Source: Actinomycetota bacterium (GTDB lineage: Bacteria; Actinomycetota; UBA4738). From it: a DNA stretch of 64,000 nt. Positions 35,877-60,649 of this stretch are shown here, piece after piece. Position 1 is the stretch's first letter, and each line of letters starts with the position of its first letter. Location: NCBI GenBank assembly GCA_035573915.1, contig DATLZQ010000002.1:2333-66332 (forward strand). Direction: 5' to 3'. Below the pieces are notes generated by a model, which saw nothing but the letters and a program-made list of their open reading frames with translations, had not been told where the DNA came from and did not search any database. The position numbers were made by a program, and so were the translations under genes.

Positions 35877-37385
<1,509 letters not shown>

Positions 37386-41684: not shown

Positions 41685-42691
41685 CCGGACAGGGCCCGGG
41701 CCCAGGAGGACCCGAGCAGGGCGAAGTACGTCCCAGGCTTGACGAGGTCCGGGGGGATCCGGTCCCAGAAGATGCCGTCGGGCTTGGGGAGCGGCGGCTC
41801 GCAGCGGAGTACTCGGGTCGGGGTGACGATGACGTCAACCGTCACGTCGTAGGGAGCGTGCGCCACGGCCTGGTCGATGACCTGGCAGTCGTGGACGGAC
41901 ACGATGACGGGTGTGCGCTGACTCACGAGGTCGAGTTCGCGGAGCAGCGCCCACTCGAGGTCCAGGAAGCCGTGGCCCTTTCCGAAGTGGACACCCTCCC
42001 TCGTCACGGCGGCCGCCCCGCTCACCACCGCGTCGACTCTCCCCAGTCGGACCAGCCGCTCGAGGGAGAGGTACGTTCCGAACCGCTCCATGGCGTCCAG
42101 CGTCGCGGCGAGCTCAAGGGCGCTCGGACGCAGGCGACGAGGGTCGAGGAGGACGAACCCACGGCGCATGGCGTAGGTAGCGACCACGAGGCGCTTTCCG
42201 TCAGCCAGCGCCTGGTGTCGGAACTGCTCCAGGTTGTTGTCGGGGGCCACGAACAGAAGGGACGCGGAGCGGTACTCCGGCAGTCGCCTGAGGGTTCGGG
42301 TGCACCGGTCGCTGCCCTCGAAGTCGGGGATGAATTCCCGGAAGTCGAAGTCGAAGCGGGAGTCGGGACGGGCAACCGCTCTGAGCTTGCTCCACACCGC
42401 CCTGCGCAGCTTCGCGGCCGGGTTGACGAACGTCCCGCGCCCCGGCTCTCGCCACAGGAGGCCTTCGCGTTCGAGTTCTGCCAGAGCTCGCCGCACCGTC
42501 CCCCGGCTCACCCGGAAGCGCTGGACCAGACTCCACTCGGCCGGGAGGGGGCGGTCGTCCTCCAGGGGGGACTCCAGGATTGCACGCTCGAGCTCGCGGG
42601 CCACGCGCACGTAGAGCGGGAGCCGTCGGGTGTCGGCACCAGGGTCGCTCCCGGTCAGGGGCACCGCTCTCCACCGCCGAGGGAGAGGCAT
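41681..42691 (-). CDS. GntR-family transcriptional regulator with C-terminal 5-FCL-like effector domain
   Basis: N-terminal wHTH (LPLYVRVARELERAILESPLEDDRPLPAEWSLVQRFRVSRGTVRRALAELEREGLL). C-terminal 5-FCL fold (FGKGHGFLDLEW). ATG at 42691 has no SD and sits in an AT-rich patch (possibly leaderless). Confidence 0.7.
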   Translation of the reverse strand: MPLPRRWRAVPLTGSDPGADTRRLPLYVRVARELERAILESPLEDDRPLPAEWSLVQRFRVSRGTVRRALAELEREGLLWREPGRGTFVNPAAKLRRAVWSKLRAVARPDSRFDFDFREFIPDFEGSDRCTRTLRRLPEYRSASLLFVAPDNNLEQFRHQALADGKRLVVATYAMRRGFVLLDPRRLRPSALELAATLDAMERFGTYLSLERLVRLGRVDAVVSGAAAVTREGVHFGKGHGFLDLEWALLRELDLVSQRTPVIVSVHDCQVIDQAVAHAPYDVTVDVIVTPTRVLRCEPPLPKPDGIFWDRIPPDLVKPGTYFALLGSSWARALSG

Positions 42692-42771: not shown

Positions 42772-44535
42772 TCAGGCCTCGAGGGGGACGAGCTCGAAGC
42801 GGACCGTGTCCACCAGGCCCCGGTCCGTGATCTTGAGCTCGGGGATCACCGACAGGGCCAGGAACGACATGGCCATGAACGGGGAGGGCAGGGTGACGCC
42901 GAGGCCCCGGGCGGCCTCCTCCAGGTGCTCCACCGCCGCGGCCACCTCCTCGGCGGGCCGGTCCGAGAGGAGCCCCCCGATGGGGCAGCGCACCTCTCCT
43001 ACGACCTGCCCCCCGGCCACCGCCACCTGCCCCCCGCCCACCCGGGCCAGGTGGTTGACGGCGGCCGCCATGTCGGCCTCGTCCACCCCTACCACCACCA
43101 CGTTGTGGGCGTCGTGGGCGTGCGTGGAGGCCAGGGCGCCCCGGCGGAGCCCGAACCCCGTGACGAATCCCAAGCCCACCCGCCCCGTCCCCCGGTGGCG
43201 TTCGACCACCGCGATCTTGGCCAGGTCGCGGCCGGGGTCGGCCACGGCCTGCCCGTCCCGCCGGGCCGGCTCGGCCACCAGGGCCCGGGTCACGATCTGC
43301 CCCGGCTCCACCCCGATCACCCGGACCCGGCCGTCGGCCCGGACGGAGAAGGCCTCCGCCATGAGCTCGGGCACCCGGACGCTCCCCCGCATCCAGGCTG
43401 GCGCCTCCACCCTGGGCACGCCCAGGGCCACCCCGTCCCGCGCCACCAGCCGCCCTCGCTTCCAGACGAACCGTGGCCGGAAGGACGAGAGGTCCGGGAC
43501 CGCCACGATGTCTGCCAGGTACCCGGGGGCCACGGCCCCGTGTCGCCACAGGCGGTGGTAGCGGGCCGCGTTCAGGGTCCCCAGGGCCACGGCCACCTCG
43601 GGCGGGCAGCCCAGGGCCACGGCCCTTCGGACCACGTCGTTGACGTGCCCCTCCCGCAGGAGCTGGTCGGGCTCGCGGTCGTCGGTGCAGAGGAGGCAGT
43701 TGGTGGACCCGTACCGGAGGACCAGGGGGAGGAGGGCCTCGAGGTTCCGGGCGGCGGAGCCCTCCCGGATCATGATCCACATCCCCAGCCGGCGCTTCTC
43801 CAGGGCCTCCTCGAACGTGGTGCACTCGTGGTCGCTGCTCACCCCCCCCGCGAGGTAGGCGTTGAGGGCCTTGCCGGACAGCCCCGGGGCGTGGCCGTCC
43901 ACGTGACGGTCCCCGGCCCGGCGGGCGGCCTCGATCTTGGCCAGGATGGCCTCCTCCCCGGCCACGGCGTTGGGGTAGTCCATGAGCTCGGCCAGGCCCA
44001 GGGCCCGCCGCTCCTCGGCCAGGAACCGCTCGATGTCCGGGGCCTCCACCGTGGCCCCGTTGGACTCGAAGGGGCTGGCCGGGACGCAGGAGGAGACCAT
44101 CACGTAGTAGTCGAGGGGGACCCCCTCGGCCAGGCGGAGCAGGGCCTGCACCCCCTCCAGCCCGAAGACGTTAGCCACCTCGTGGGGGTCCAGGACGACC
44201 GTGGTCGTCCCCCAGGGGAGGACGGCCCGGGCGAACTCGTCCACCATGAGCTTGGTGGACTCGAGGTGCATGTGGCCGTCGATGAACCCGGGCAACAGGA
44301 CCAGGCCGGAGGCGTCCACCGTCTCTCGCCCCTCGTAGCGGCCGAGCCCAGCCACGTACTCCCCGGCCACGGCCACGTCGGCCTCAAGGAGCTCGCCCGT
44401 GAAGACCGAGAGGACCCGGGCGCCTTTGATGACCAGGTCGGCCGGCTCGTCCCCCCGGGCCACGGCCAGCCGATGGGCGAGGTCCCTCGTCTCCTCCGCG
44501 CCGCTCACGTCCCCACCGTCCTGGTTGGCAGACAT
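42772..44535 (-). CDS. ade: Adenine deaminase (amidohydrolase superfamily)
   Basis: ATG 44535 after GGGAGGGGA. 587 aa. FIDGHMHLESTKL metal-binding motif typical of Ade. Confidence 0.8.
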   Translation of the reverse strand: MSANQDGGDVSGAEETRDLAHRLAVARGDEPADLVIKGARVLSVFTGELLEADVAVAGEYVAGLGRYEGRETVDASGLVLLPGFIDGHMHLESTKLMVDEFARAVLPWGTTTVVLDPHEVANVFGLEGVQALLRLAEGVPLDYYVMVSSCVPASPFESNGATVEAPDIERFLAEERRALGLAELMDYPNAVAGEEAILAKIEAARRAGDRHVDGHAPGLSGKALNAYLAGGVSSDHECTTFEEALEKRRLGMWIMIREGSAARNLEALLPLVLRYGSTNCLLCTDDREPDQLLREGHVNDVVRRAVALGCPPEVAVALGTLNAARYHRLWRHGAVAPGYLADIVAVPDLSSFRPRFVWKRGRLVARDGVALGVPRVEAPAWMRGSVRVPELMAEAFSVRADGRVRVIGVEPGQIVTRALVAEPARRDGQAVADPGRDLAKIAVVERHRGTGRVGLGFVTGFGLRRGALASTHAHDAHNVVVVGVDEADMAAAVNHLARVGGGQVAVAGGQVVGEVRCPIGGLLSDRPAEEVAAAVEHLEEAARGLGVTLPSPFMAMSFLALSVIPELKITDRGLVDTVRFELVPLEA

Positions 44536-44570: not shown

Positions 44571-45566
44571 TCAGGCGTACCCGCCCATGGTCAGGGCCAT
44601 GAGCGCCTTGCCCGTGTGCAGCCGGTTCTCGGCCTCGTCGTAGACGACGGACTGGGGCCCGTCGATGACCTCGTCGGTGACCTCGTGGCCCCGGTCCGCG
44701 GGCAGGCAGTGCATGTACAGGGCGTCCGGCCTGGCCAGGGCCATGCGCCGGGCGTCGCAGATCCAGTCCCGGTGGCGCTCCGAGGTGGCCAGGGCCGCCC
44801 GCTCGTCGGCGAAGAGGTCCAGCCGCCCCCAGGACTTGGGGTAGACGACGTCGGCCTCCCGGAAGGCCTCGTCCATGTCGTGGACGACCGTCACGCCCCC
44901 CCCTCCCTCCTCCGCTGCCCGCCGGGCCTTGTCCATGGCCTCCGGCATGAGGTCCCAGCCCTCCGGGTAGGCGAGGACCACGTCCACCCCGAACCGGGGG
45001 AGCAGCATGGCTAGGCCCTGGGGGACGGACAGGGGCTTGGCGTAGGAGGGGGCGTAGGCCCAGGAGACGGCCACCCGCAGTCCGCGCAGGTCCTGTCCCC
45101 GCTTCTCCCGGATCGTCATGAGGTCGGCCAGGGTCTGGGTGGGGTGGTCCACGTCGCACTGGAGGTTGATCACGGGGACCTCGGCCCACCGGGCCACCTC
45201 CCGCATGTAGGCGTTGCCCTCGTAGGGCACGAGGTCGTGGCGGATGGCGATCCCGTGGCCGTAGCGGGAGAGGATGATCCCCATGTCCTTCGGGCTCTCC
45301 CCGTGGGCCACCTGCGTCTTCTCGGCGTCCAGGTAGTGGGCGTGGCCCCCCAGCTGGGTCATGCCGGCCTCGAAGGCGTTGCGGGTGCGGGTGGACTTGT
45401 CGAGGAACAGCATGAACAGGGTCTTGTCCGGGAGGAGCCGGTGGGGCTCCCCCCGGCGGAACTTCTCCTTGAGCTCGACGGAGACCGCCAGGGCCTCCTC
45501 GATCTCCTCCACCGTCCAGTCGAAGGTCTCGATGTAGTCCCGCCCGGCCAGGGCCCTGCGGTCCAC
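44571..45566 (-). CDS. ygeW: YgeW-like knotted carbamoyltransferase (OTCase/ATCase superfamily), substrate unknown
   Basis: Collinear similarity to E. coli YgeW (FLDKSTRTR, GNAYMREV, VINLQCDVDHPTQ, WAYAPSYAKPLSVPQG, ALYMHCLPAD). Start assigned to the GTG at 45566 after a perfect AGGAGGTGA SD; N-terminus uncertain. Confidence 0.75.
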   Translation of the reverse strand: MDRRALAGRDYIETFDWTVEEIEEALAVSVELKEKFRRGEPHRLLPDKTLFMLFLDKSTRTRNAFEAGMTQLGGHAHYLDAEKTQVAHGESPKDMGIILSRYGHGIAIRHDLVPYEGNAYMREVARWAEVPVINLQCDVDHPTQTLADLMTIREKRGQDLRGLRVAVSWAYAPSYAKPLSVPQGLAMLLPRFGVDVVLAYPEGWDLMPEAMDKARRAAEEGGGGVTVVHDMDEAFREADVVYPKSWGRLDLFADERAALATSERHRDWICDARRMALARPDALYMHCLPADRGHEVTDEVIDGPQSVVYDEAENRLHTGKALMALTMGGYA

Positions 45567-45631: not shown

Positions 45632-48031
45632 TCAGCCGTGGCGGGCCACGGCGCCCAGGCCCACGTACTCGGGGACGGGCCGCTGGCCCGGGACCCGCGG
45701 CGACGGCGGCCACGGCTGGCGGGGCCGGACGGGGCCCGACAGCCCCACCAGGTCGTCGGGGCGGACCGGGATCCGGTTCAGCTCTCGCCCCGTGGCCGCC
45801 CGCAGGGCGGCCACGACGGCCGCAGGGGCCACGATGGTGGAGGGCTCGCCCACGCCCTTGGCCCCGAACGGCACCCCCGGCTCCGGCTCCTCCACGAGCG
45901 ACGAGCGCACCGGCGGCATGTCCAGGATGGTGGGGATGAGGTAGTCGGTGAAGGACGCGTTGCGGATCCTCCCCCCGTCGAGCTGGAGCTCCTCCATGAG
46001 CGCCAGGCCCAGGCCCATGGCCGAGCCCCCTTCCACCTGGCCCTCGACCATCTGCGGGTTGATGGCCCGGCCCACGTCCTGGGCCACCGCCAGCTCCACC
46101 ACCCGCACCAGCCCCAGCTCCTCGTCCACCTCGACCACGGCCCGGGCCGCGGCGAAGGTGAACGTCACGTGGATGTCCCCCTGGCCCTCCTCGTCGAAGG
46201 TCGTGGTGGGCCGGTGGTGGTACTCGCGGGTGGCCTCGATGGGCTCCCCCAGGAACTCGGCCACCGGGGCCACGGGCACCCCGTCCGCCATGAGCTCCCC
46301 GTCGGCCACCGTGAGCTCGGCCCCCTCCAGGTCGGGCCGGGCCTGGCGGGCCCTGGCCACGAGCTCCTCCAGGACCGCCCGACAGGCCGCCTCCACCGCG
46401 CCCCCCGTCATCATGGTCTGGCGGGAGGCGGAGCTCGACCCAGCCGAGCCCACCAGCGTGTCCGGCGGGTGGAGGACCACGTCCTCCACCCCCAGGACCG
46501 TGCGGGCCACCTGGACCACCACGGTGTGGACCCCCTGCCCGACCTCGGCGGCGGCGGTGTGGACCTCCGCCACCGGCCGGCCGTCGGACCCCAGGGAGAG
46601 CCGGACCCGGGCCGTGGAGTAGTCGTCGAACCCCTCGCTGTAGCCCACGTTCTTGTAGCCTGCGGCGTAGCCCACCCCACGGCGGAGCCCCTCCCCTCGG
46701 CCCACGTTGCCCGCCACCCCGCCGGGCAGCGTGATGGGGTCCCGGCGGCCCCGGGCGTCCACCGGTTCGGGCTGAGGGAGGGGGGCGGCCCGCACCCGCT
46801 CCAGGAGCTCCCGCACTGGGGCCGTGCCCCGGATCACCTGTCCGGTGGGGAGGACCGACCCCGTGCCCACGGCGTTGCGCAGCCTGAGCTCCACGGGGTC
46901 CAGCCCCAGTTCCCGGGCCAGCTTGTCCATCTGGGCCTCGTGGGCGAAGGCGGCCTGGACGGCCCCGAACCCTCGCATGGCGCCGCAGGGCGGGTTGTTC
47001 GTGTAGACGGCCGTCCCCTCGATGAAGGCGTTGGGGACCTCGTACGGCCCGCAGGCGAAGGTGGAGGCGTTGGCGATCACGAACGGCGAGGAGGACGTGT
47101 AGGCCCCACCGTCGATGAGGAACCGGCAGCGCACCGCCACCAGCCGCCCGTCCCGGGTGGCCCCCGTCCGCATCCAGATCCGGGCCGGGTGGCGGTGGAC
47201 GTGGCCGAAGAAGGACTCCTCCCGCCCGTAGGACATCTTGACCGGTTTCCCGGTGTGGAGGGCCAGGAGGCAGGCGTGGATCTGCATATGGACGTCCTCC
47301 CGGGACCCGAAGGCCCCGCCCACCCCGGCCAGGTGCAGGCGGACCTTCTCCTCGGGGAGGCCCAGCACGGGGGCGATCTGCTGGCGGTCCACGTGGAGCC
47401 ACTGGGTGGCCACGTACAGGTCGACCCCGCCGTCCTCCGCCGGGACCGCCAGCCCAGCCTCCGGCCCCAGGGGAGCCTGGTCCTGCATGCCGGTCTCGTA
47501 GTAGCCCTCCACCCAGACGTCGGCCCGGGCGTCGGGGTGCCCGTGCACGATGCGCACGTGGCGCACCACGTTGCCGAACTCGTGGACCTGGGGGGCGCCA
47601 GGTTCGAGGGCCTCCTCCATGTCGGTCACGGCCGGCAGGGGCTCGTAGACGACCCGGATGCGCTCCGCGGCCCGGCGGGCCTGTTCAGGGTGCTCGGCCG
47701 CCACCAGGGCCACGGGCTCCCCGGCGTAGCGGACCCGGTCCCAGGCCAGGACCGGCTGGTCGGGGTAGTCGAGGCCGAAGGTCTTCCGCCCCGGGATGTC
47801 CGAAGCGAGCAGGACGGCGTGGACCCCCGGGGCCGCCAGGGCCTCCGAGATGTCCACCGAGACGATGCGGGCGCTGGGGTGGGGGCTACGGAGCGTGTGG
47901 CCCCAGAGCATGCCCTCCGCCCACAGGTCGCTCCCGTAGGCGAAGGCCCCCTTGACCTTGGGGACCCCGTCCACCCGCCGGACGCTCTCCCCGACCCCCA
48001 GCCGCGCCCGTTCGGCGACCCGCTCGCTCAC
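45632..48031 (-). CDS. Xanthine-dehydrogenase-family molybdopterin-binding large subunit (XdhB/CoxL-like)
   Basis: GTG 48031 after GGAGGGAGG overlaps the upstream stop (GTGA). About 800 aa with Ald_Xan_dh_C/C2 signatures (GGAFGSRED, TNNPPCGAMRGFG). Confidence 0.85.
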   Translation of the reverse strand: MSERVAERARLGVGESVRRVDGVPKVKGAFAYGSDLWAEGMLWGHTLRSPHPSARIVSVDISEALAAPGVHAVLLASDIPGRKTFGLDYPDQPVLAWDRVRYAGEPVALVAAEHPEQARRAAERIRVVYEPLPAVTDMEEALEPGAPQVHEFGNVVRHVRIVHGHPDARADVWVEGYYETGMQDQAPLGPEAGLAVPAEDGGVDLYVATQWLHVDRQQIAPVLGLPEEKVRLHLAGVGGAFGSREDVHMQIHACLLALHTGKPVKMSYGREESFFGHVHRHPARIWMRTGATRDGRLVAVRCRFLIDGGAYTSSSPFVIANASTFACGPYEVPNAFIEGTAVYTNNPPCGAMRGFGAVQAAFAHEAQMDKLARELGLDPVELRLRNAVGTGSVLPTGQVIRGTAPVRELLERVRAAPLPQPEPVDARGRRDPITLPGGVAGNVGRGEGLRRGVGYAAGYKNVGYSEGFDDYSTARVRLSLGSDGRPVAEVHTAAAEVGQGVHTVVVQVARTVLGVEDVVLHPPDTLVGSAGSSSASRQTMMTGGAVEAACRAVLEELVARARQARPDLEGAELTVADGELMADGVPVAPVAEFLGEPIEATREYHHRPTTTFDEEGQGDIHVTFTFAAARAVVEVDEELGLVRVVELAVAQDVGRAINPQMVEGQVEGGSAMGLGLALMEELQLDGGRIRNASFTDYLIPTILDMPPVRSSLVEEPEPGVPFGAKGVGEPSTIVAPAAVVAALRAATGRELNRIPVRPDDLVGLSGPVRPRQPWPPSPRVPGQRPVPEYVGLGAVARHG

Positions 48032-49430
48032 CCCGACCTCCCTCCGCCCCTCGGCCGGATCTCCAGCCCGGCGATGCGGCGGGCCACCCTCCGGCCCTCC
48101 TGGGCGATGGTCTCCTCGTCGGCCGTGACGAGGTGGCCGTCCCGGACCACCGGGCATCCCTCCACGAACAGGTGGCGGACCCGCCGGGGCGCGCAGTGGA
48201 GGAGGGCCGCCACCGGGTCGGTCTCGGCGCCCGCGAACTCCAGCCCCTCCACGGAGAACAGGGCCACGTCGGCCCGCTTCCCCGGCTCCAGCGAGCCGAG
48301 GTCGTCCCGGCCCAGGCAGGCCGCCCCGCCCCGGGTGGCCACCCGGAGGGCGGCCCGGGCGTCCAGGGCCCCGGGGTCGCCCCCGGCCCGGGCCACGAGC
48401 ATGCCCACGCGGGCCTCAGCCAGCAGGTGGCCGGCGTCGTTGGAGGCGGAGCCGTCCACCCCCAGGCCCACGGTGGCCCCCGCGTCCAGCAGGTCCCGGG
48501 CCCGGGCCACGCCCGCCCCCAGCCGGAGGTTGGAGGTGGGGCACCACGCCACCCCGGCCCCGGCCTCCGCGACCCTTCGGACGTCCCGCTCGTCCAGGTG
48601 CACGCAGTGGGCCAGCCAGACGTCGGGGCCCAGGAACCCGAGGTCCTCGAGGAGCTCAAGGGGCCGGCGCCCGAACCGCTCCCGGCAGTAGGCCTCCTCG
48701 TCCCGGGTCTCGGCGACGTGGGTGTGGAGGCGGACCCCCAGCCGCCGGGCCAGCTCCGCCGACTCCTTCATGAGGCGCTCCGTGGCCGAGAACGGCGAGC
48801 AGGGGGCCACCGCCACCCGGAGCATGGCCCCCGGGGACGGGTCGTGGTAGCGGGCCACGGCGGTCTCGGTCTCGGCCAGGACCCGGTCGGTGTCCTCCAC
48901 CACGGAGTCCGGAGGGAGACCGCCCCGGGAGGCCCCCAGGTCCATCGAGCCCCGGCAGGGGTGGAACCGCAGCCCCACCTGCCGGGCCGCGTCCATCTCG
49001 GCCTCCAGCAGGCCCGACACGCCGGGGGGGAAGACGTAGTGGTGGTCGGCGGTGGTGGCGCACCCCGAGAGGGCCAGCTCGGCCAGGCCCACCGCGGCCG
49101 CGGCCCGCTCCCACTCCGGGTCCAGCCCGGCCCACACCGGGTACAGCTCGGTGAGCCACCCGAACAGCCCCTTGGTCTGGGCCCGGACCCGGGTGAGGCA
49201 CTGGTAGAGGTGGTGGTGGGCGTTGACCAGGCCCGGGAGGGCCACCGTCCCCCGGCCGTCCACGTGTTCGGCCTCCTCCGCGCCCGGCGGCTGGCCCGTC
49301 CCCACCCAGGCCACCTGCCCGTCCCGCAGGAGGAGCGACCCGCCGGGGAGCTCGGTACCCCGGTCGTCCATGGTCACGACCACCTCGCACCCCTCGATGA
49401 GGACGGGCCGGGCCCGCGGTTCGCCCACGC

Positions 49431-49434
<4 letters not shown>
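48028..49434 (-). CDS. Amidohydrolase, COG0402-type (guanine/8-oxoguanine/cytosine deaminase-like)
   Basis: GTG overlaps the FeS-subunit stop (GTGA). LVNAHHHLYQ metal site, HTHVAET, GVDGSASND. Confidence 0.75.
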
Positions 49435-49895
<461 letters not shown>

Positions 49896-49907: not shown

Positions 49908-50792
49908 TCAGGCCCCGGTGCCTTCCCCGGCCCACCGCCGGTCCTCCAGGGCCCAGCGCAGGGCCCTCCGGGCCAGGACGGCCACGGCGTGGCGCCGGTA
50001 GGCGGCCGTGCCCCGGACGTCGTCGATGGGCCGAGCAGCCTCCGCCGCCAGGCGTCCGAACTCCTCGAGGGCCTCCTCGGGGACGGGCGCCCACGGGTCG
50101 TCCCACGCCCCGGCCTCGGCCAGGGCCTCCCGGGCGAAGGCCTCGGCCTCCCGGGCCCGGACGATGGTGGGGGCCACCGAGCCCAGGGCCACCCGGACCT
50201 CCCGGGCTCCGTCGTCCAGCTGGAGGCAGAGCCCGGCCACGGAGATCACCATGGCGTTGCGGGTCCCTACCTTCGAGAACGACCCGGGCCCCCGGACCGC
50301 CCGCCACCGGGCCCCCAGGATGAGCTCGTCGGGCTCCAGGGCGTTGCGTTTGGGCCCCAAAAGGAAGCGGTCCCAGGGGAGGGTCCGCACCGCCCCCGCC
50401 CGGGCCAGGACCACCTCGGCGTCGTAGGCGGCCAGGACCGGCAGGGCGTCCCCGGCCGGGGAGGCCGTCCCCAGGTTCCCCCCCAGCGTGCCCCGGTTCC
50501 GGATCTGGGGGGAGCCCACGGTGCGGGAGGCCTGGACCAGGGCCGTGAACTCGGGGAGCTCGCGCATGATCCGGGTGTAGGTCACCCCAGCCCCGAGGAA
50601 GACCTGGCCGTCCTCCCGCCGCCACTCGGCCAGCTCGGGCAGGCGGGAGACGTCGAGGAGGGCGGGGGGGCGGCGTCGGTCGAAGTTGAGCTCCACCATG
50701 ACGTCCGTCCCCCCGGCGATGGGGAGGGCCTCGGGCCGACGGGCCTTGAGCTCCAGGGCCTCCTCGAGCGAGCGAGGCAGCAGGACGTCCAT
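49908..50792 (-). CDS. Xanthine-dehydrogenase-family FAD-binding medium subunit (CoxM/YgfM-like)
   Basis: ATG 50792 overlaps the upstream stop (TGATG). AGGTDVMVEL, NRGTLGGNL FAD-binding motifs. Confidence 0.8.
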   Translation of the reverse strand: MDVLLPRSLEEALELKARRPEALPIAGGTDVMVELNFDRRRPPALLDVSRLPELAEWRREDGQVFLGAGVTYTRIMRELPEFTALVQASRTVGSPQIRNRGTLGGNLGTASPAGDALPVLAAYDAEVVLARAGAVRTLPWDRFLLGPKRNALEPDELILGARWRAVRGPGSFSKVGTRNAMVISVAGLCLQLDDGAREVRVALGSVAPTIVRAREAEAFAREALAEAGAWDDPWAPVPEEALEEFGRLAAEAARPIDDVRGTAAYRRHAVAVLARRALRWALEDRRWAGEGTGA

Positions 50793-51817
50793 CAGAACTT
50801 CCCCCCGGCGAAGGCATCGATCATGGCCCGCACGTCGTCCCCCAGAGGGTAGAGGATGGGGCAGGTGCAGCCAGCCTCCACGTACTCCCGGACCTTGGCC
50901 CGGCACTCCTCCGCTGTTCCCGAGGCCGTGAGGAGCTGGACCACCTCGTCGGGGACCAGGCGCATGGCCCGCCGGATCTCCTCGGGGCCCGCAGGCCAGG
51001 TGAGGACCCTGCCGATCTCCTCGAGGAGGGAGGGGTCCACCCCGCTGGCCTTCATGATGTGGGGCTGCTGGCCCAGGTACTGGGTGACGAGCTCCCGGGC
51101 CCGGTCCAGGGCTACCTCCCGGTCCTCGTCCAGGGAGCACACCACGAGCTGGGGGCGGTCCAGGTCGTCCACGGTCCGGCCGGCGCGGGCCGCCCCCTCG
51201 GCCAGGGCGGCCAGGGCCTCCCGGTTGTAGGCCGGGCTCACCAGGTAATTGAGGACCACGCCGTCGGCCAGTTCCCCGGCCAGCTCCATCATCCGCATCC
51301 CCGTGGCCCCGATGTAGATGGGGACGTTGCGCGGCTCCCGCCGGCCGTGGACCACGTCGATCTCCACGTCCGTGAGGTGGACGAACTCCCCGTGGTACGT
51401 GACGCGCTCCATGGCCAGGAGGCGCCGGGTGGCCTCCACTGTCTCCCGCATGGCCTGGAGGGGGCGGCGACGGCGGATGCCCACCTTGGAGGCCAGGGGG
51501 TCCCACCAGGCCCCGATCCCCAGGATGACCCGGTCGGGGGCCAGGTCGTCCAGGGTGACGAAGGTGGCCGCCAGCAGGCCCACGTTGCGGGTCCAGCAGT
51601 TCACCACCCCCGAGCCCACCTTGAGCCGCTCGGTGACGGCGGCGTAGGCGGCCATGGGGACGGTGGCCTCCCGGACCAGGCGGCTCTCGGCCTGCCAGAC
51701 CGCCTCGAACCCCCGCTCCTCCGCGTAGCGGGCGTAGGCCATGCCGTCCCGGATGGGGTGCTTGTCCTGGAGGTACAGGGCCACCCGTCCCTGGCCGGTC
51801 ACCGCCACCTCAGCCAC
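50792..51817 (-). CDS. Luciferase-like monooxygenase (LLM) class oxidoreductase, probably F420-dependent, embedded in the hydroxylase operon
   Basis: 341 aa LLM TIM-barrel pattern (...GFEAVWQAE..., GIGAWWDP). GTG start at 51817 (an in-frame GTG 5 codons in is also possible). Confidence 0.7.
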
Positions 51818-51838: not shown

Positions 51839-53191
51839 TCACGCCGTGGCCGGGACCCCCGCCGGCACGAAGGGGTGCTCGTCGAGCTCGTCCAGCCTCC
51901 CCCAGAGCCGCTCGGCTGCCCGGCGAGCCCGCGCGGCCACCTCCGCCGGGTCCACCCGGGTGGGGCGGCGGTCCCGGACCACGAGCTCGCCCCCCACCAC
52001 GACGTCCCGGACGTGGCGGGCGGAGAGGCCGAAGACCCAGTGGGCGGCCAGGGTCTCGGGCTCGAGAGGGGTCGGCGGGTCGTACTCCAGCACCACCAGG
52101 TCGGCCGGAGCCCCCGGCTCCAGGGCGCCGAGGAGGGGCTCCCCGAAGGCCCGCCCGGCGAACCGGGCGGACTCCGCCAGCCGCTCCAGGACCCAGGGCG
52201 GGCCCACCCTGGGGTCCGCCTCCCGGGCCCGCCAGTAGGCGGCACGGGACTCGGCGAACAGGTCCCCGTCGATCCCGTCCGTGCCCAGGGCCAGCCGCCG
52301 GAAGGCTCCCACCGGGGCGTGCCCCACCCGGTTGTTCATGTTGGAGCGGGCGTTGTGGACGACCGTAGCCCCCCGTGCGTGGATGGCCTCCACCTCGCCC
52401 TGGTCCACGTGCACGCAGTGGGCGAGGAGGGCTCGCTCGTCCAGGGCCCCCGCCCGGTCCAGCCGGTGGATCACCCGGGTCCCGAAGCGGGCCAGGCAGT
52501 CGGCCTGGTCGGTCGCGTCCTCGGCCACGTGGACGTGGAGGCCGACCTGGAACTCCCTGGCCAGCTCCACGCAGGCGGCCAGGGTGTCCTCGGAGAGCGT
52601 GAAGCTCGCGTGGGCCCCCACCATGCCCCGGGTGCGCTCCCGGGGCCGCTCGAGGAAGGCCCGCTGGAGCTCGAGGCCGGCCCGGGCCACGTCCGGTCCG
52701 TCCCGGTCGCTCACCTCGTAGCACAGGACCGAGCGCAGCCCGAGCTCCTCCAGGGCCGAGGCCACGAGCTCCAGGCAGCCGGGCCCGGCGACGCTCGGCG
52801 AGGCGTGGTGGTCGACGACCGTGGTGGTCCCGGCCAGGAGGGCCTCCAGCCCTCCCAGGGCGGCCGAGGCCCGGACCGTGTCCTCGTCCAGGGCCCGGTC
52901 CAGCCGCCACCACACGCGGCGCAGGACCTCCACGAAGGTCCGGGGCGGCGGGAGGCGGTAGGGCATCCCCCGGGCCAGGGCCGAGTACAGGTGGTGGTGG
53001 GCGCAGACGTTGCCCGGGATGACCACGCAGCCCGAGCAGTCCAGACGGGGAGCCCCGGTGGGGAGCCCGGCGTCGCCAGGCTCGGCCACCCGGCCGTCCC
53101 TGACCAGCAGGTCGGCCCGGGCCAGGCGGGGCGGGGAGAGGGAGGTGACCACGGTCCCCCCGGTGAGGGCCAGGGCCCCTCCTCCCCTCAC
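51839..53191 (-). CDS. ssnA: SsnA-like amidohydrolase (chlorohydrolase-type)
   Basis: Collinear with E. coli SsnA (VCAHHHLYSALARGM, WWRLDRALDED, VHNARSNMNNRVGH, LALGTDGIDGD). GTG overlaps the upstream stop (GTGA). Confidence 0.75.
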   Translation of the reverse strand: MRGGGALALTGGTVVTSLSPPRLARADLLVRDGRVAEPGDAGLPTGAPRLDCSGCVVIPGNVCAHHHLYSALARGMPYRLPPPRTFVEVLRRVWWRLDRALDEDTVRASAALGGLEALLAGTTTVVDHHASPSVAGPGCLELVASALEELGLRSVLCYEVSDRDGPDVARAGLELQRAFLERPRERTRGMVGAHASFTLSEDTLAACVELAREFQVGLHVHVAEDATDQADCLARFGTRVIHRLDRAGALDERALLAHCVHVDQGEVEAIHARGATVVHNARSNMNNRVGHAPVGAFRRLALGTDGIDGDLFAESRAAYWRAREADPRVGPPWVLERLAESARFAGRAFGEPLLGALEPGAPADLVVLEYDPPTPLEPETLAAHWVFGLSARHVRDVVVGGELVVRDRRPTRVDPAEVAARARRAAERLWGRLDELDEHPFVPAGVPATA

Positions 53192-54435
53192 CCCTGGACG
53201 ACCTCCCGGACCGCGGCCAGGGCCGGCGCCACCCGATGGGGCTGGCGGCCGGCGGCCCGGGCGGCCTCGGTGGCCGCCCGGACGTCCTTGAGGCCGCTTC
53301 CCGTGACCACGCAGAGGACCCGGTCCCCCGGCCCGACCAGGCCCTCCTCCCGGGCCCGCCGGAGCCCGGCCAGGCTGGCCGCGGCGGCCGGCTCGGCGAA
53401 GACCCCGTGGGCCGCGAGCTCCCGCTCGGCGGCCAGGATCTCCTCGTCGCTCACGGCGAGGAGCGCCCCGCCCGACTCCCGGACGGCCCGCAGGGCCTTG
53501 ATGCCGTTGCGGGGCTCGGCCACGGAGATGGAGTCGGCCACGGTGTGCGCCTCCCGGACCTCCCAGGACTCCGTCCCCCGCTGGAAGGCGTCCACCAGAG
53601 GGGATGCCCCCTGGGCCTGGGTCCCCAGGAGCCTGGGGAGCCGGTCGATGACCCCGAACCGCCGCATCTCCTTGAGGCCCTTCCAGACCCCGGCCACGGT
53701 GCAGCCGTCCCCCACCGAGACGCTCACCCAGTCCGGGAGGGCGTCGCCGAACTGCTCGGCGATCTCCAGCCCCGCCGTCTTCTTCCCCTCCACCGGGACG
53801 GGGTTGATGGCGGCGCTGCGGTTGTACCAGCCGAAGGCCGCGGCGGCCCGGCTGCACAGCTCGTAGGCGTCCCGGTAGCTCCCCTCCACCACGAACACGG
53901 TGGCCCCGAAGATGAGGAGCTGGGCCACCTTGGCCTCCGGGGCCACCTCGGGCACGAAGATGAAGGCCCGCAGCCCGAGCTGGGCGGCGAAGCCGGCCAG
54001 GGAGGAGGCGGCGTTGCCCGTGGAGGCGCAGCAGACGGTGTCGAACCCGAGCTCCCGGGCCTTGACGGCGGCCACGGAGGAGGCCCGGTCCTTGAACGAG
54101 GCCGTGGGGTTGCGCCCCTCGTCCTTGACCCAGAGCTCGGCCACCCCGAGGGAGCGGGCCAGCCCTGGGAGGGGGAAGACCGGCGTCCAGCCGACCGGGA
54201 CCGGAGGGACCTCCGCCCCGTCGCCGATGGGGAGCAGGTCCCGGTACCGCCACTGGGTGCGCTCGGGGTCGGCGGCCAGGCGCTCCGGCCCGAAGCCCTC
54301 CCGGGCGAGGGCGTCGTAGTCGTAGCGGACGTCCAGGATGCCGGTGGGCCCGCAGTGGGGGCAGGTGTAGAGGACCTCCCCCTCCGCATAGGACCGGTCG
54401 CACTTCACGCAGACCAGGGCCTGGACCTTGCCCAC
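53188..54435 (-). CDS. Threonine-synthase-like PLP enzyme (fold type II) with N-terminal zinc ribbon
   Basis: CVKCD...CPHCG ribbon. PLP-Lys motif NPTASFKDR. CASTGNAASSLA glycine loop. 415 aa. Confidence 0.75.
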   Translation of the reverse strand: MGKVQALVCVKCDRSYAEGEVLYTCPHCGPTGILDVRYDYDALAREGFGPERLAADPERTQWRYRDLLPIGDGAEVPPVPVGWTPVFPLPGLARSLGVAELWVKDEGRNPTASFKDRASSVAAVKARELGFDTVCCASTGNAASSLAGFAAQLGLRAFIFVPEVAPEAKVAQLLIFGATVFVVEGSYRDAYELCSRAAAAFGWYNRSAAINPVPVEGKKTAGLEIAEQFGDALPDWVSVSVGDGCTVAGVWKGLKEMRRFGVIDRLPRLLGTQAQGASPLVDAFQRGTESWEVREAHTVADSISVAEPRNGIKALRAVRESGGALLAVSDEEILAAERELAAHGVFAEPAAAASLAGLRRAREEGLVGPGDRVLCVVTGSGLKDVRAATEAARAAGRQPHRVAPALAAVREVVQG

Positions 54436-54452: not shown

Positions 54453-57083
54453 TCAGCCGCCGGGCTCGCGGCCCCGGGCGGCCCCGGCCAGCCTGGGGTG
54501 GGCGGCCCGGGCCGCCGGGGAGTCCCGCATGGGCAGCCGGGTCCGCCGGACCCCGTCGTAGGCGTACAGAGCCCCGGCCACGGCCGAGGCCGTTGGGACC
54601 AGGGCGATCTCCCCCACCCCCTTGGCCCCGTAGGGCCCCTCGGGCTGGGGCTCCTCCACGAAGATGCACTCCACTTTGGGCATGCCCGTGGGGGGGATGA
54701 TCCCGAGGGACTTGAGGGTGGTGGTCACGGGCACGGCCCCTTCCACCACGAACTCCTCGGTGAGCGCGTGGCCCAGGCCCATGTGGACAGCGCCTTCGAC
54801 CTGCCCCTCCAGGAGCGTGGGGTTGATGACCTTGCCCACGTCGTGGGCGGCCACCACCTTCTCGATCCTCCCCTCCTCGTCGAGGACGACCACCTGAGTG
54901 GCCCACCCGTAGGCGAAGTGGGTGGCCGCGCCGTCCGGGCCCTCGCCCGGCTTGTAGGTCCAGTCCACCTTGACCTCGCCGTAGAACTCCTGGCCCGCTA
55001 GGTCCTCGAGGCGCCTCCCGTCGAGGGCCGCCTTGAGCTTGCGGGCCGCCTCGATCACGGCCCGGCCCCCGAGGACCGTGGACCGTGAGGCCGTGGTCTG
55101 TCCCGTGTCGAGCTCTCGCGCCGTGTCCACCACCACCCGGACCCGGTCCGCAGTGAGGCCCAGCTCCTCGCAGGCGATCTGGAGGAGGGCCGTGTGCACC
55201 CCCTGGCCCATCTCGGTCCAGGAGTGCAGGAGGGTGACGGTCCCGTCCGCCTCGGGCCGAAGGATGGCCCGGCCGTACTCCACGATGCCGTTGCCCACGC
55301 CCGTGTTCTTGGCAGCGCAGGCGATCCCCACGGCCTTCCCTTCCGCCCGGGCCCGGTCGTAGGCCTCCTTCACGGCGAGGAGGGTCTTCTTGATCCCCAC
55401 CCCCGGGCCCAGCACCTGCCCGGTGCCGAACCGGTCCCCCACGTCCACGGCGTTGCGCCAGCGCATCTCCCAGGGGTCCAGCCCCACCTTCTCCGCGAGG
55501 ATGTCGATCATCCCCTCGATGGCGAAGTTGGCCTGGTTCGAGCCGAACCCCCGCATGGCCCCGGCCGGGGGGTTGTTCGTGTAGACGGCGTAGGCCTCCA
55601 CGTCCACGTTGGGCACCCGGTAGACGCTGCAGGCGTGTCCGGCGGCCCGCTCCAGGACCTTGTCGCCCACGCTGGCGTAGGCCCCGGTGTCCCCCACGAT
55701 CCGGGCCCGGACGGCCGCCAGACGCCCCTCCTCGTCGCAGCCCACCGTGTACTGGAGGGTCATGGGGTGGCGCTTGGTGTGGAAGCGGATGCTCTCCTCC
55801 CGGCTCAGCGTGATCCGGACCGGACGGCCGGTGCGGAGGGCCAGGAGGGAGGCGTGGCACTGGACGTTGAGGTCCTCCTTGGCCCCGAAGGCCCCCCCGT
55901 TCGACACCTGGGTGACCCGGACCTGCTGCGGGGGGACGCCGAGGAAGGAGGCGACCTGCCGACGGTCCTCCCACACCCCCTGGCCCTGGGAGTACACGTG
56001 GACCAGAACCCCCTCCTCGGGGTGGGGGACGGCCAGGGAGGACTCGGGCTCGAGGAAGGCGTGCTCGATGAACTGGGTCCGGAAGGTCTGGGTGGCCACG
56101 TGGGCGGCGGAGGCCAGGGCGGCGTCCACGTCGCCCCGCTTCACCTTGGACACCGAGAGGACGTTGCCGTTGGGGTGGAGCCTGGGGGCGTCGGGCCTCA
56201 TGGCCTCGAAGGGGTCGGTCACGGGCTCCAGGACCTCGTACTCCACCTCGACCAGGCGGGCGGCCTCCCGGGCCGCCTGACGGGTCTCGGCGGCCACCGC
56301 CGCCAGGACATCCCCCACGTAGGCCGTGACCTCCCCCTCCGCCACAAACTGCCGCCAGTCGCGGGTGATGAGCCCCTGGCTCCGCTCGCCCGGGACGTCC
56401 TTCCAGGTGACCACGGCCACCACCCCGGGGTAGGCCTCGGCCTTGGAGGTGTCGATCCGGAGGACTCGGGCCCGGGGGTGGTCGGAGAACCGGAGGGCCC
56501 CGTGGAGCATCCCCGGGACCTCCATGTCGTTGATGTAGGGCTTGTCGCCCAGGGCCAGCTCCTCCCCCTGGTACCGGGCGGTACGGGTCCCCACCCGGCC
56601 GCTCCGGTCGGGGGCCGGTAGGGGCTCGCCCCGCCGGGCCCGGGCGGCGAGCTCGATGGCGTCGATGATCTTCACGTAGCCCGTGCACCGGCAGAGGTTC
56701 CCGGCCAGCGCCCGGGCGATCTCCTCCCGGGAGGGCTCGGAGTTGCGGGCCAGGAGCGAGTGGGCCTTCATGACGATGCCCGGGGAGCAGAACCCGCACT
56801 GCGAGGCCCCGGCCACCACGAAACAGGTGGCCCACAGGGCCCGGTCCTCCGGGGAGAGGCCCTCCTGGGTGAGGACGCTCCGCCCGGCGGCGCGGGCCGC
56901 GGGCTGGGCGCAGGAGACCACGGCCTTCCCGTCCACGAGGACGGTGCAGGCCCCGCACGACCCCTCCGGCGCGCAGCCGTCCTTGACCGAGACCAGCCCG
57001 CAGGTCTCCCGGAGGAGCTCCAGGAGGGTCTGCCCCTCCCGGACCTCCACCGAGACGGGTCGTCCGTTCAGTGTGAACTCCAT
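54453..57083 (-). CDS. xdhD: Fused [2Fe-2S]-molybdopterin-binding molybdenum hydroxylase subunit (XdhD-like)
   Basis: ATG 57083 after GAGGAGGTGGG. N-terminal 2Fe-2S domain (CAPEGSCGACTV; QCGFCSPG...CRCTGY) fused to an about 720-aa Mo-cofactor domain (GGAFGAKED, TNNPPAGAMRGFG). Confidence 0.85.
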   Translation of the reverse strand: MEFTLNGRPVSVEVREGQTLLELLRETCGLVSVKDGCAPEGSCGACTVLVDGKAVVSCAQPAARAAGRSVLTQEGLSPEDRALWATCFVVAGASQCGFCSPGIVMKAHSLLARNSEPSREEIARALAGNLCRCTGYVKIIDAIELAARARRGEPLPAPDRSGRVGTRTARYQGEELALGDKPYINDMEVPGMLHGALRFSDHPRARVLRIDTSKAEAYPGVVAVVTWKDVPGERSQGLITRDWRQFVAEGEVTAYVGDVLAAVAAETRQAAREAARLVEVEYEVLEPVTDPFEAMRPDAPRLHPNGNVLSVSKVKRGDVDAALASAAHVATQTFRTQFIEHAFLEPESSLAVPHPEEGVLVHVYSQGQGVWEDRRQVASFLGVPPQQVRVTQVSNGGAFGAKEDLNVQCHASLLALRTGRPVRITLSREESIRFHTKRHPMTLQYTVGCDEEGRLAAVRARIVGDTGAYASVGDKVLERAAGHACSVYRVPNVDVEAYAVYTNNPPAGAMRGFGSNQANFAIEGMIDILAEKVGLDPWEMRWRNAVDVGDRFGTGQVLGPGVGIKKTLLAVKEAYDRARAEGKAVGIACAAKNTGVGNGIVEYGRAILRPEADGTVTLLHSWTEMGQGVHTALLQIACEELGLTADRVRVVVDTARELDTGQTTASRSTVLGGRAVIEAARKLKAALDGRRLEDLAGQEFYGEVKVDWTYKPGEGPDGAATHFAYGWATQVVVLDEEGRIEKVVAAHDVGKVINPTLLEGQVEGAVHMGLGHALTEEFVVEGAVPVTTTLKSLGIIPPTGMPKVECIFVEEPQPEGPYGAKGVGEIALVPTASAVAGALYAYDGVRRTRLPMRDSPAARAAHPRLAGAARGREPGG

Positions 57084-57096: not shown

Positions 57097-58317
57097 TCAT
57101 GGCCCTCGGTGGCCGGCGGCGGCCAGGTAGGCTTCGGGGAAGGCGGCGTACCAGGCGGCCGCCACCGGCAGGTGCTCGATTGGGCACTGGTCGTCCGGGC
57201 TGTGGGCGTAGACCTCGTTGGCCGGGCCGAACCCGATGGTCGGGATCCCCAGGCGCCCCGCGCTGGACACCCCGTTCGTGGAGAACACCCACCGGCCCAC
57301 CTGGGGCGTGCGGCCCAGGGCCCGGCGGGCCGTCTCCACCCCCGCCTGCACGGCCGGGTGGTCCTCGGGGAGGACCCAGGTGGGGAAGTACTTGTCGATG
57401 GAGAGGGTGAGGCCTGTGTAGGCCGTGCCCTCGTAGCGGAGGAGCTCCACGGTGGCCTCGCCCGACTGGACGGCGGGGAGGGCCTCCAGCTCGGCCCGGG
57501 CGGACTCCACGGTCTCCCCGATGGTGAGCCGCCGGTCAAGGTAGATCGTGCAGCCGTCGGGCACGGCGTTGAGGGAGGGGGTCTGGACCTCCACTTTGGA
57601 GACCACGACCGTCCCCTTGCCAAGGAAGGGGTCGGCCGCGAGGCGCTCGTTCAGGGCCTCCACCTGCTGGATGATGGGGGCCATCCGGTAGACGGCGTTC
57701 ACCCCCCGCTCCGGGGCGGAGGCGTGGGCCGCCCGGCCCCTTGTGTGGATGGCGAACTCCGCCCGCCCTCGGTGCCCGCGGTACACGTCCAGGTCCGTGG
57801 CCTCCCCCAACACCACCACGTCCGGGCGTGGGATCCCGTTGGTGAGGAGGTACTCGAGGGCCAGCCCGTCGCAGTCCTCCTCCTGGACCGTTCCCACCAC
57901 GTAGAGGGTGAACGCGGAGGCGTCCACACCCAGGCGCTTGAGCAGGGCTCCCCCGTAGACCATGGAGGCGGTGGCGGCCTTGTTGTCCGAGGCCCCCCGC
58001 CCGTAGAGGATCCCGCCCTTGACCTCCGGGGTGAAGGGGTGGGTCCTCCAGGAGGCGGGGTCCCCCACGTCCACCGTGTCGATGTGGCTGTCGAAGACGA
58101 TGCGGACGGGGCCGTCCCCGATCCGTCCCACCACGCTCCCGAAGGGGTCCACGGTGACCTCGTCGTAGCCCAGGGCGGTCATCTCGTCCCCGATCCGCTG
58201 CACCACCTCGCGCTCCCGCCTGGACAGGCTGGGGGTGGCGATGAGGTCCTCGAAGAAGCGGCCCATCCGCTCCTCGAGCCGGCGGGCCTCCTCCAGGAAC
58301 CGCTCGTCGGTCTTCAC
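57097..58317 (-). CDS. ygeY: YgeY-like M20/DapE-ArgE family metallohydrolase
   Basis: GTG 58317 after GGGAGGGAGG. Collinear with E. coli YgeY (HIDTV, GRGASDNK, VQEEDCDGL, GEATDLDVYRGHRGR, SAPERG). Confidence 0.85.
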   Translation of the reverse strand: MKTDERFLEEARRLEERMGRFFEDLIATPSLSRREREVVQRIGDEMTALGYDEVTVDPFGSVVGRIGDGPVRIVFDSHIDTVDVGDPASWRTHPFTPEVKGGILYGRGASDNKAATASMVYGGALLKRLGVDASAFTLYVVGTVQEEDCDGLALEYLLTNGIPRPDVVVLGEATDLDVYRGHRGRAEFAIHTRGRAAHASAPERGVNAVYRMAPIIQQVEALNERLAADPFLGKGTVVVSKVEVQTPSLNAVPDGCTIYLDRRLTIGETVESARAELEALPAVQSGEATVELLRYEGTAYTGLTLSIDKYFPTWVLPEDHPAVQAGVETARRALGRTPQVGRWVFSTNGVSSAGRLGIPTIGFGPANEVYAHSPDDQCPIEHLPVAAAWYAAFPEAYLAAAGHRGP

Positions 58318-58966
58318 GGTCCTCCCTCCCCGGGCCGGGGCTCGGCCCGATTCGACTCGTCCAGGTAGTTGTAGATCGTGAAGCGGCTCACCCCGAGCCG
58401 GGCCGCCACCCGCTCCACCGCCTTCTTGATGAGGAAGGCTCCCCGTTCGTCCAGGTATCGGACCACCTGCTGCTTCTGACGCCGCGACATCTCCTCGACG
58501 GGCACCCCCACGGCGTCGGCCGCCGCGTCCAGCATGCGGTCCAGGGCGTCCCCCAGGTGGTCGGTGGGGGGCTGGGGCTCGGCGCCGTCCGGCTCGGCCA
58601 GAGAGGCCAGGAGGCGGGCGGCCCGGGAGAGGGCCGCGGTGTCCACCTCGATGGCCACGGCCAGCCCGTCCCCGGGCTCCGGGCCGGGGAGGGGGAGCAC
58701 GCTGATCCTGGTCCCCCCGCCTACGGACCGGTTGACCACCGGCTCCCCAAAGGCGAGCAGAGGGAGGACCGGGTCGGCTCCACCGCGACCCCTGGCCCTG
58801 GCCGGCCGGCCCCACGAGTCCACTCGCCGCGGAGGGCGGAGCTCGTAGAGGCTGACCCGGAACGGAGGCCCCAGCGTGCGGGCCAGGGCTCGGCAGAAGT
58901 CCAGGGCCGGGGAAAGGTCGTCCTCGGGCCGGCTCGACGGTTCCACGCGTCCCTCCTCGACCATTG
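58314..58966 (-). CDS. Transcriptional regulator with C-terminal HTH (YheO/PucR-like)
   Basis: C-terminal ...VERVAARLGVSRFTIYNYL. ATG 58966 lacks SD and lies in an AT-rich patch. Stop overlaps ygeY start. The longer ORF (to 59120) has an implausible Pro/Cys-rich lead. Confidence 0.5.
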
Positions 58967-60602: not shown

Positions 60603-60649
60603 GGAGGCCGGGCCTCCCCGCCGTGGTGCACCATGTCCCGGGACCGACG

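Follow-up and report, generated by a model that had tools for sequence, protein, structure and literature searches.

A luciferase-like (LLM) protein encoded in a bacterial purine operon is, with a probability that we put at about 0.65 from gene context, a reductase that acts on 2,8-dioxopurine (isoxanthine) with F420H2, a non-homologous replacement for YgfK of E. coli and UacX of C. difficile. The protein, here called LLM2, is encoded by an open reading frame (ORF) at 50792–51817 on the minus strand of the window, by which we mean the whole 64,000-nucleotide stretch of contig DATLZQ010000002.1 (assembly GCA_035573915.1) that was analysed. The separate parts of this proposal differ in strength: LLM2 very probably uses F420 and, with only slightly less assurance, acts in purine catabolism, as judged from the genes around it. 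An initial annotation of the window had suggested F420-type ring reduction in nucleobase catabolism and is partly supported: the grouping of the protein with F420 enzymes, its retention in clusters and the absence of YgfK, UacX, PydA, PreA and PreT all speak for the suggestion, the role itself being a proposal.

LLM2 is the product of a real gene. The G+C content at third codon positions (GC3) of the ORF is 0.96 within a window of ~73% G+C, and its reading frame agrees with the codon-position GC pattern, which shows a single extended series of minus-strand genes between ~59.0 kb and 42.7 kb. The protein matches PF00296 (Bac_luciferase) with E = 4.7e-71 and 240 bits (cut-off 27.9), and the alignment of residues 16–318 with profile positions 15–313 of 314 spans the full TIM-barrel domain expected of the superfamily. 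HXF56037.1, annotated as ‘LLM class flavin-dependent oxidoreductase [Actinomycetota bacterium]’ and derived from a metagenome-assembled genome (MAG) labelled Actinomycetota, has exactly the same sequence (100% identity). Translation more likely starts at GTG 51808 (338 aa) than at GTG 51817, because GGGAGG lies ~8 nt upstream of the former and nearly all homologues are 336–338 aa long; at GTG 51817 the Shine–Dalgarno sequence would directly abut the start codon with no spacing.

The sequence affinities of LLM2 are with F420 enzymes. F420 LLM families account for all of its top NCBIfam matches (Mer, 171 bits; TIGR03841, 133.5 bits; TIGR04024, 122 bits), and the nearest PDB sequences are Mer (E = 1e-39), Fgd1, fHMAD and Adf, with SsuD following only at 4.5e-6. 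An AlphaFold2 model (predicted local distance difference test score, pLDDT, 90; predicted template-modelling score, pTM, 0.89) forms a (β/α)8 barrel, for which Foldseek returned Mer at ranks 1–8 (TM-score 0.82–0.87, root-mean-square deviation (rmsd) 2.5–3.4 Å) and other F420 dehydrogenases at ranks 9–30. Phylogenies of the LLM fold indicate that cofactor use tracks clade, and that Mer-type proteins belong to a ‘reductase’ clade (PMC8518648, PMC6279831). Sequence and predicted fold thus both point to F420 as the cofactor that LLM2 would bind.

Could LLM2 instead be a two-component monooxygenase dependent on flavin mononucleotide (FMN), similar to SsuD or RutA, that oxygenates a purine intermediate? 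Its PGAP name reads only ‘LLM class flavin-dependent oxidoreductase’, and RutA, the FMN-dependent pyrimidine monooxygenase of the Rut pathway, is an LLM-fold enzyme of nucleobase catabolism, as is proposed for LLM2. RutA, however, uses FMN and O2 for oxidative ring cleavage and is a weak structural match to the LLM2 model (TM-score 0.68, rmsd 6.4–6.5 Å, ranks 43–45); no RutA family occurs among the 25 NCBIfam matches listed for LLM2, or among the matches with E ≤ 1e-15 listed for LLM1, a second LLM protein of the window described below. FMN families score no more than 41 bits against LLM2, compared to 134–171 bits for F420 families, and FMN luciferases and monooxygenases enter the Foldseek list only from rank 31, fitting far worse (rmsd 5–10 Å). 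Together with the lack of a flavin-reductase gene in the operon, and with orthologues that sit inside F420 biosynthesis operons, these data render a monooxygenase highly improbable. Clustering of both LLM proteins with FMN-dependent monooxygenases, which the initial annotation had named as the outcome contrary to its proposal, was not found; both are nearest to F420 enzymes.

Mer (PDB 8QPL, 1Z69) is the closest match of LLM2 in both sequence and fold (28% identity, TM-score 0.86–0.87), and, at the non-prolyl cis-peptide position that follows β3, LLM2 retains the Gly-Val pair (G67-V68). Mer transfers hydride from F420H2 to a heterocycle, a chemistry also proposed for LLM2, but the context of LLM2 is purine catabolism in non-methanogenic bacteria. 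We considered whether LLM2 is a true Mer or another methylene-pterin reductase, and ruled this out from scores below the cut-offs, the lack of Glu6 and the wrong genomic context. Scores against two Mer families are 171 bits (cut-off 276) and 160 bits (cut-off 349). The residues described for jMer are Glu6 and the Asp96 of a GxGD motif, in jMer numbering (PMC11094777). Catalytic Glu6 aligns with Tyr12 of LLM2, which is invariant in 83 orthologues, and the first 29 residues of the 338-aa protein include no Glu. The GxGD(96) motif of Mer (GIGPGD) corresponds to an invariant GIGAWWDP in LLM2 orthologues, where a shift by one residue could still bring the Asp into alignment; GIGAWWDP is present in relatives down to ~37–40% identity. 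A further position was not used, being ‘Gln178’ in the jMer description (PMC11094777) and Asn178 by our count on the aligned PDB sequence. One might speculate that Tyr12 serves as proton donor and that the WW motif stacks on a purine, the AlphaFold2 model being ligand-free. Most LLM2 orthologues are annotated as ‘5,10-methylenetetrahydromethanopterin reductase’ at JGI, whereas at NCBI they bear the generic name ‘flavin-dependent oxidoreductase’. With the Mer catalytic residues absent and the genes set among purine enzymes, the former name is probably wrong and the latter uninformative.

LLM2 belongs to a compact purine operon of 12 genes, in which the genes from YgeY to PucD are separated by gaps of at most 30 nt or overlap by 1–4 nt. 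As the initial annotation had it, the LLM gene lies between ssnA and hydroxylase subunits, with an SsnA-like gene upstream and a subunit that binds flavin adenine dinucleotide (FAD) downstream. In order of transcription, and with functions predicted from family scores (PLP, pyridoxal 5′-phosphate; OTC, ornithine transcarbamoylase), the operon reads:

58314–58964, minus strand: HTH_22 regulator, the first gene of the operon (PF13309, E = 3.5e-25); 4-nt overlap of its stop with the start of YgeY
57097–58317, minus strand: YgeY-family M20 hydrolase (NF009555, 496 bits, cut-off 321; 47% identity to E. coli YgeY)
54453–57083, minus strand: XdhD-type fused 2Fe-2S and molybdopterin hydroxylase (TIGR03311 ‘selenium-dependent xanthine dehydrogenase’, 1007 bits, cut-off 830; 27% identity over 948 aa to E. 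coli XdhD)
53188–54435, minus strand: PLP enzyme resembling threonine synthase (PF00291; NF006050, 317.7 bits, cut-off 303)
51839–53191, minus strand: SsnA-like amidohydrolase (NF005540 SsnA, 400 bits, cut-off 444; TIGR03314, 385 bits; 35% identity to E. coli SsnA, E = 2e-75)
50792–51808 (longest ORF to 51817), minus strand: LLM2, Mer-like F420-class LLM oxidoreductase of 338 aa (PF00296), proposed F420H2-dependent 2,8-dioxopurine reductase
50790–50794, minus strand: TGATG stop/start overlap between LLM2 and the FAD-subunit gene, read from the sequence
49908–50792, minus strand: FAD-binding subunit of a molybdenum hydroxylase, XdhB/YgfM-like (PF00941 and PF03450; 29% identity to E. coli XdhB and to YgfM)
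49431–49895, minus strand: 2Fe-2S subunit (PF01799 and PF00111)
48028–49428, minus strand: 8-oxoguanine-deaminase-like amidohydrolase (NF006055, 628 bits, cut-off 532)
45632–48031, minus strand: PucD-type xanthine dehydrogenase molybdenum subunit (TIGR03196, 862 bits, cut-off 784)
44571–45566, minus strand: carbamoyltransferase, YgeW/OTC-like (PF02729 and PF00185; NF005538 YgeW, 250 bits, below cut-off; 39% identity to E. coli YgeW)
42772–44535, minus strand: adenine deaminase, the last catabolic gene of the operon (TIGR01178, 590 bits, cut-off 472)

The reductive uric-acid/2,8-dioxopurine pathway was characterised in 2025 in gut bacteria (10.1101/2025.05.19.654654 = PMC12507026; 10.1101/2025.04.24.650524). 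An XdhD-type hydroxylase, SsnA and downstream hydrolases, the combination by which such clusters are recognized, occur together in the window operon, which differs in having HyuA at a distance, no YqeA and no YgeX orthologue. By these homologies the operon is a version of the reductive cluster joined to purine-funnelling enzymes and devoid of the known ring reductase. When E. coli pathway proteins were compared with the window by tblastn, YgfK, YqeA, YqeB and YqeC had no match, and YgeX gave a fragmentary match to the PLP gene (28% identity over 140 aa). The PLP enzyme may be a non-orthologous substitute for YgeX; a threonine-synthase-type PLP gene that passes NF006050 is kept in related purine clusters (L008, L051, L058 and others), where E. 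coli has the diaminopropionate ammonia-lyase YgeX. The sole HyuA homologue of the window is a dihydropyrimidinase at 8158–9534 on the plus strand, within the LLM1 cluster and 45 kb from the purine operon, and the purine and pyrimidine pathways may share this hydantoinase. Many related LLM2 loci carry a hydantoinase copy of their own. An Rfam scan of the whole window for purine/xanthine-sensing riboswitches found only three tRNAs.

The enzyme missing from the operon is a ring reductase of the known type. YgfK, YgfT, PreA and PreT had no tblastn match in the window or in 86 related loci, and a Pfam census of the window contained no DHO_dh or GltD-type ORF of the YgfK/UacX kind. In E. coli the gene order is ygfK-ssnA-ygfM-xdhD, with the reductase next to ssnA there too, and product formation by YgfK requires coupling to SsnA (Li et al. 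2025, PMC12507026); adjacency of reductase and ssnA in both systems fits a reduction that is detectable only when coupled to SsnA. The predicted steps would run as follows. Adenine deaminase, the 8-oxoguanine-deaminase-like enzyme and the PucD/2Fe-2S/FAD xanthine dehydrogenase would feed purines to urate, from which the XdhD-type hydroxylase would take the C6 oxygen to give isoxanthine. LLM2 would then reductively dearomatise isoxanthine, whose pyrimidine ring would receive a hydride from F420H2, and SsnA would hydrolyse the unstable dihydro product at once, pulling the unfavourable reduction forward. The hydantoinase, the YgeW-like carbamoyltransferase, YgeY and the PLP enzyme would complete the pathway.

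LLM2 would thus resemble YgfK and UacX, the characterised 2,8-dioxopurine reductases, in its position by ssnA and in a predicted two-electron, SsnA-coupled dearomatising reduction. The proteins nevertheless share no homology: LLM2 is a single 338-aa TIM barrel without iron–sulfur (Fe-S), FAD or FMN domains, and its predicted donor is F420H2, compared to NAD(P)H or ferredoxin for YgfK/UacX. As to the chemistry replaced, the initial annotation had named NAD(P)H- or selenium-dependent steps. The first part is compatible with the loss of an NAD(P)H- or ferredoxin-dependent flavin/Fe-S reductase of the YgfK/UacX type, whereas the selenium part fails, as the XdhD-type hydroxylase is still in the operon. 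A hydantoin-like substrate, also suggested there, is not favoured either; the likely substrate, 2,8-dioxopurine, precedes ring opening.

Gene neighbourhoods support a link to SsnA. Relatives of LLM2 occur in at least 571 species genomes, the 80 best-matching loci encoding proteins 70–85% identical to LLM2 and being labelled Actinomycetota (38), Chloroflexota (30) or other (12). We surveyed the neighbourhoods of 86 loci (L001–L086). SsnA lies directly upstream of the LLM2 orthologue in 42 of 78 loci, and in 13 further loci only F420 genes intervene. Among the 53 loci in which the orthologue is flanked by 5 kb or more on each side, SsnA is found in 43 (81%), a xanthine dehydrogenase (XDH)-family gene in 46 (87%), and SsnA, XDH or cof/F420 genes in 51. 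Absence from the cluster in close relatives, a further outcome that the initial annotation had set against its proposal, is likewise not what was seen: the gene is kept in clusters of close and distant relatives alike.

Many of these loci also connect the LLM to its presumed cofactor. The cof or fno genes occur in 28/86 loci, and cofC is directly upstream in 21/78; in the actinobacterial loci L001 and L003, CofC lies ~10 kb from the LLM gene. Thirteen Chloroflexota loci have the order (PLP)...SsnA-fno-cofE-(FbiB C-terminal domain)-cofD-cofC-LLM...XdhD/FAD/FeS/PucD, with CofD, CofC, CofE and NpdG all scoring above the NCBIfam cut-offs:

about 6200–10000 in each of L051, L058, L059, L061, L064, L066, L071, L073, L074, L076, L081, L083 and L086: F420 genes between ssnA and the LLM gene

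With fno (NADPH:F420 oxidoreductase) and the genes for F420 tail biosynthesis inserted between those for hydrolase and LLM, these loci constitute independent evidence both for F420 use and for the pathway role. This gene order suggests an electron path from NADPH through Fno to F420H2, LLM and substrate, and suggests that F420 in those Chloroflexota is made largely to feed the purine pathway. In the Anaerolineales locus L058, an 876-aa ORF without a Pfam match (11545–14175, plus strand) lies between the LLM and the XdhD-type gene.

Several observations weigh against the assignment of LLM2 as the isoxanthine reductase. The protein falls below the curated cut-off of every named NCBIfam F420 LLM family (NF002619, 170.6 vs 276 bits; TIGR03841, 133.5 vs 213.65 bits). 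Within the window, cofC, cofD, cofE and fno have no tblastn match, so the case for F420 synthesis in the source genome comes from relatives and from its two F420-class LLM proteins. In 10 of the 86 loci a 72–78% identical orthologue stands in an unrelated context, and the order fno-cofE-cofD-cofC-LLM is found in some Ardenticatenia loci that lack SsnA within 6 kb, from which it follows that the LLM2 family is not strictly tied to SsnA. LLM2 is also more conserved than SsnA in 60 of 60 paired loci (median 77% vs 60%), which is unusual for a catabolic enzyme. Finally, the activity of the family is predicted only, and LLM2 could act on some other pathway intermediate. As an observation on the family, the Acidobacteriota-type loci L040, L042 and L047 (about 7200–9800, minus strand) have an LLM2 orthologue without SsnA, XDH or cof neighbours, adjoining a divergent D-aminoacylase-like amidohydrolase (NF006560, below cut-off) whose fold is that of UacY from the C. 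difficile pathway.

Some of these data would be expected of a general F420 enzyme, involved in F420H2 regeneration, in the conversion of some other central metabolite or in F420 maturation, for which location in a purine operon is secondary. Conservation at 70–85% identity across phyla and beyond that of all neighbours, the 10 loci where the orthologue stands alone in unrelated contexts, and the loci that link it to fno-cofE-cofD-cofC without SsnA are in keeping with such a role. Against it stand the frequencies of SsnA and XDH-family genes in well-flanked loci, the tight placement (gaps of ≤30 nt) of actinobacterial LLM2 between ssnA and purine genes, with no cof genes nearby, and the presence in Chloroflexota clusters of Fno and an FbiB C-terminal domain, which already cover the reduction of F420 and dehydro-F420. 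We therefore regard a general role as improbable. A function in F420 maturation in particular, which the adjacency of cofC had prompted, was dropped as the principal explanation, given actinobacterial purine operons without cof genes and the FbiB C-terminal domain of the Chloroflexota clusters.

A different intermediate of the same pathway is a somewhat better contender, yet still unlikely. LLM2 could be an F420-dependent purine-pathway enzyme that reduces urate or xanthine, acts on a ring-opened ureido compound, or works in the oxidative direction as a dehydrogenase. The clustering evidence is equally compatible with this, and an operon without clear YgeX and HyuA orthologues implies that further steps are also unlike those of E. 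coli. However, the YgfK/UacX reduction is the only step of the pathway without a candidate enzyme, LLM2 adjoins SsnA specifically, as ygfK does in E. coli, and Mer-type LLMs belong to the reductase clade. These three points argue for isoxanthine as substrate and for reduction as the direction of reaction.

The junction between LLM2 and the FAD-subunit gene raises one more possibility. The TGA of LLM2 (50794–50792) shares its A with the ATG of the downstream gene (...AAG TTC TGA TGG ACG...), and the sequence bears out the overlap that had been described in the initial annotation. LLM2 might then act as a redox adaptor, exchanging electrons between F420 and the molybdenum-hydroxylase FAD subunit, in line with the overlap and with an FAD subunit directly downstream in 23/81 loci. 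The coupling is lineage-specific, though, and in related loci the junction is a gap of 0–21 nt or another gene comes next; the conserved unit is SsnA followed by LLM, not LLM followed by the FAD subunit. We know of no F420-dependent LLM that serves as a protein-to-protein electron carrier. In view of the conserved SsnA neighbour, an adaptor function seems very doubtful, and characterised F420 LLMs pass hydride directly to small-molecule substrates (F420 review table).

The proposal of LLM2 as an isoxanthine reductase has a published counterpart. In a similarity network of SsnA, Li et al. 2025 (Life Metab, PMC12507026) found Chloroflexota clusters in which a PF00296 gene replaces YgfK/UacX, and from bioinformatics only they proposed an F420-dependent ‘luciferase-family’ isoxanthine (‘yanthine’) reductase. 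The statement in the initial annotation that LLM/F420 enzymes are foreign to such clusters is therefore outdated, as PF00296 genes by SsnA had been reported there. LLM2 shares with the predicted Chloroflexota reductase its family (Chloroflexota orthologues in SsnA/XDH clusters are 72–78% identical), its proposed role and the absence of YgfK/UacX, and by sequence it is assigned to that family as a member from another phylum: the MAG behind the window is labelled Actinomycetota, a phylum to which the paper (PMC12507026) does not ascribe the variant. Unlike the Chloroflexota clusters, that of the window has LLM2 wedged between ssnA and the XDH FAD subunit, and holds no F420 biosynthesis genes. 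What we add is the abundance of the family in Actinomycetota and elsewhere, the embedded cof/fno genes, the evidence that it is not Mer, its unusual conservation, and a parallel in pyrimidine catabolism.

That parallel is LLM1, a second LLM gene in a pyrimidine cluster, which the initial annotation had also recognized and which is confirmed at the following position. Its Pyd-like cluster, with functions again predicted from homology, comprises:

987–12229, plus strand: whole Pyd-like cluster, with NMT1-type ATP-binding cassette (ABC) transporter, LLM1, CN-hydrolase, aminotransferase, dihydropyrimidinase, methylmalonate-semialdehyde dehydrogenase and adenosine deaminase
4832–5827, plus strand: LLM1, F420-class LLM of the TIGR03842 family (F420_CPS_4043; 430 bits, cut-off 295)
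5876–6721, plus strand: CN-hydrolase
6718–8094, plus strand: class-III aminotransferase
8158–9534, plus strand: dihydropyrimidinase/hydantoinase (43% identity to E. coli HyuA)
9630–11126, plus strand: methylmalonate-semialdehyde dehydrogenase

LLM1 and LLM2 are 27% identical. LLM1 groups with F420 enzymes and not with SsuD-type FMN monooxygenases, and it passes TIGR03842, whereas LLM2 passes no named family. The LLM1 cluster holds no PydA/PreA/PreT homologue (tblastn of PreA and PreT, window), and its gene content identifies it, by homology, as a reductive pyrimidine (Pyd) cluster without PydA. In a survey of 83 metagenome loci (L087–L169), a CN-hydrolase lies directly downstream of LLM1 relatives in 64 of 67 loci, and a dihydropyrimidinase occurs in 34 of the 36 LLM1-type loci with at least 5 kb downstream. 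Like LLM2, the TIGR03842 family consists of Mer-like F420-class LLMs that sit where a nucleobase-ring reductase is missing; unlike LLM2, it keeps the Mer-like GxGD motif and has CN-hydrolase and dihydropyrimidinase neighbours. No cof genes were seen near the TIGR03842 loci surveyed. On this basis, TIGR03842 proteins such as LLM1 may be F420-dependent dihydropyrimidine dehydrogenases that replace PydA. In the literature searched, we found no publication that links F420 or TIGR03842 to uracil reduction or that describes the LLM1-type arrangement. A PF01812 gene lies near the LLM1 relative in L088.

It is possible, at a little short of even odds, that both reductive nucleobase pathways of this lineage run on F420H2 by way of two Mer-like LLM families, LLM2 for purines and TIGR03842 for pyrimidines, and that purine catabolism is a main reason for F420 in many Chloroflexota. 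The dearomatising reductase performs the thermodynamically hard step of the reductive uric-acid pathway, and exchange of an Fe-S flavoenzyme for an Fe-S-free LLM might, if the proposal is true, let an ‘anaerobic’ pathway work in aerobic soil bacteria. With LLM2, nucleobase catabolism would then have its first assigned F420 enzyme; a 2021 review of F420 nowhere mentions purine, xanthine or uracil. For Chloroflexota and many soil Actinomycetota, F420 would gain a defined physiological function, and thousands of database entries named ‘methylenetetrahydromethanopterin reductase’ or generic ‘flavin-dependent oxidoreductase’ would need correcting. A single-subunit, Fe-S-free reductase could serve the engineering of urate-degrading probiotics, and TIGR03842 likewise for pyrimidine degradation.

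Other genes flank the purine operon. Directly downstream (37675–42691, minus strand) are a GntR regulator fused to a domain like 5-formyltetrahydrofolate (5-FTHF) cyclo-ligase, a second 5-FTHF-cyclo-ligase-like gene, a 261-aa ORF without a family match, and a fused energy-coupling factor (ECF) transporter consisting of CbiQ and two ATPase domains. Convergent with these, a xanthine/uracil permease gene is followed by one for a 563-aa protein with a weak PALP match (34226–37385, plus strand). Divergent from the operon, a metallophosphoesterase gene and then a SagB-type dehydrogenase of nitroreductase fold (59076–62170, plus strand) possibly form a peptide-modification locus. The window also carries a Bpa proteasome-activator gene, which fits Actinomycetota.

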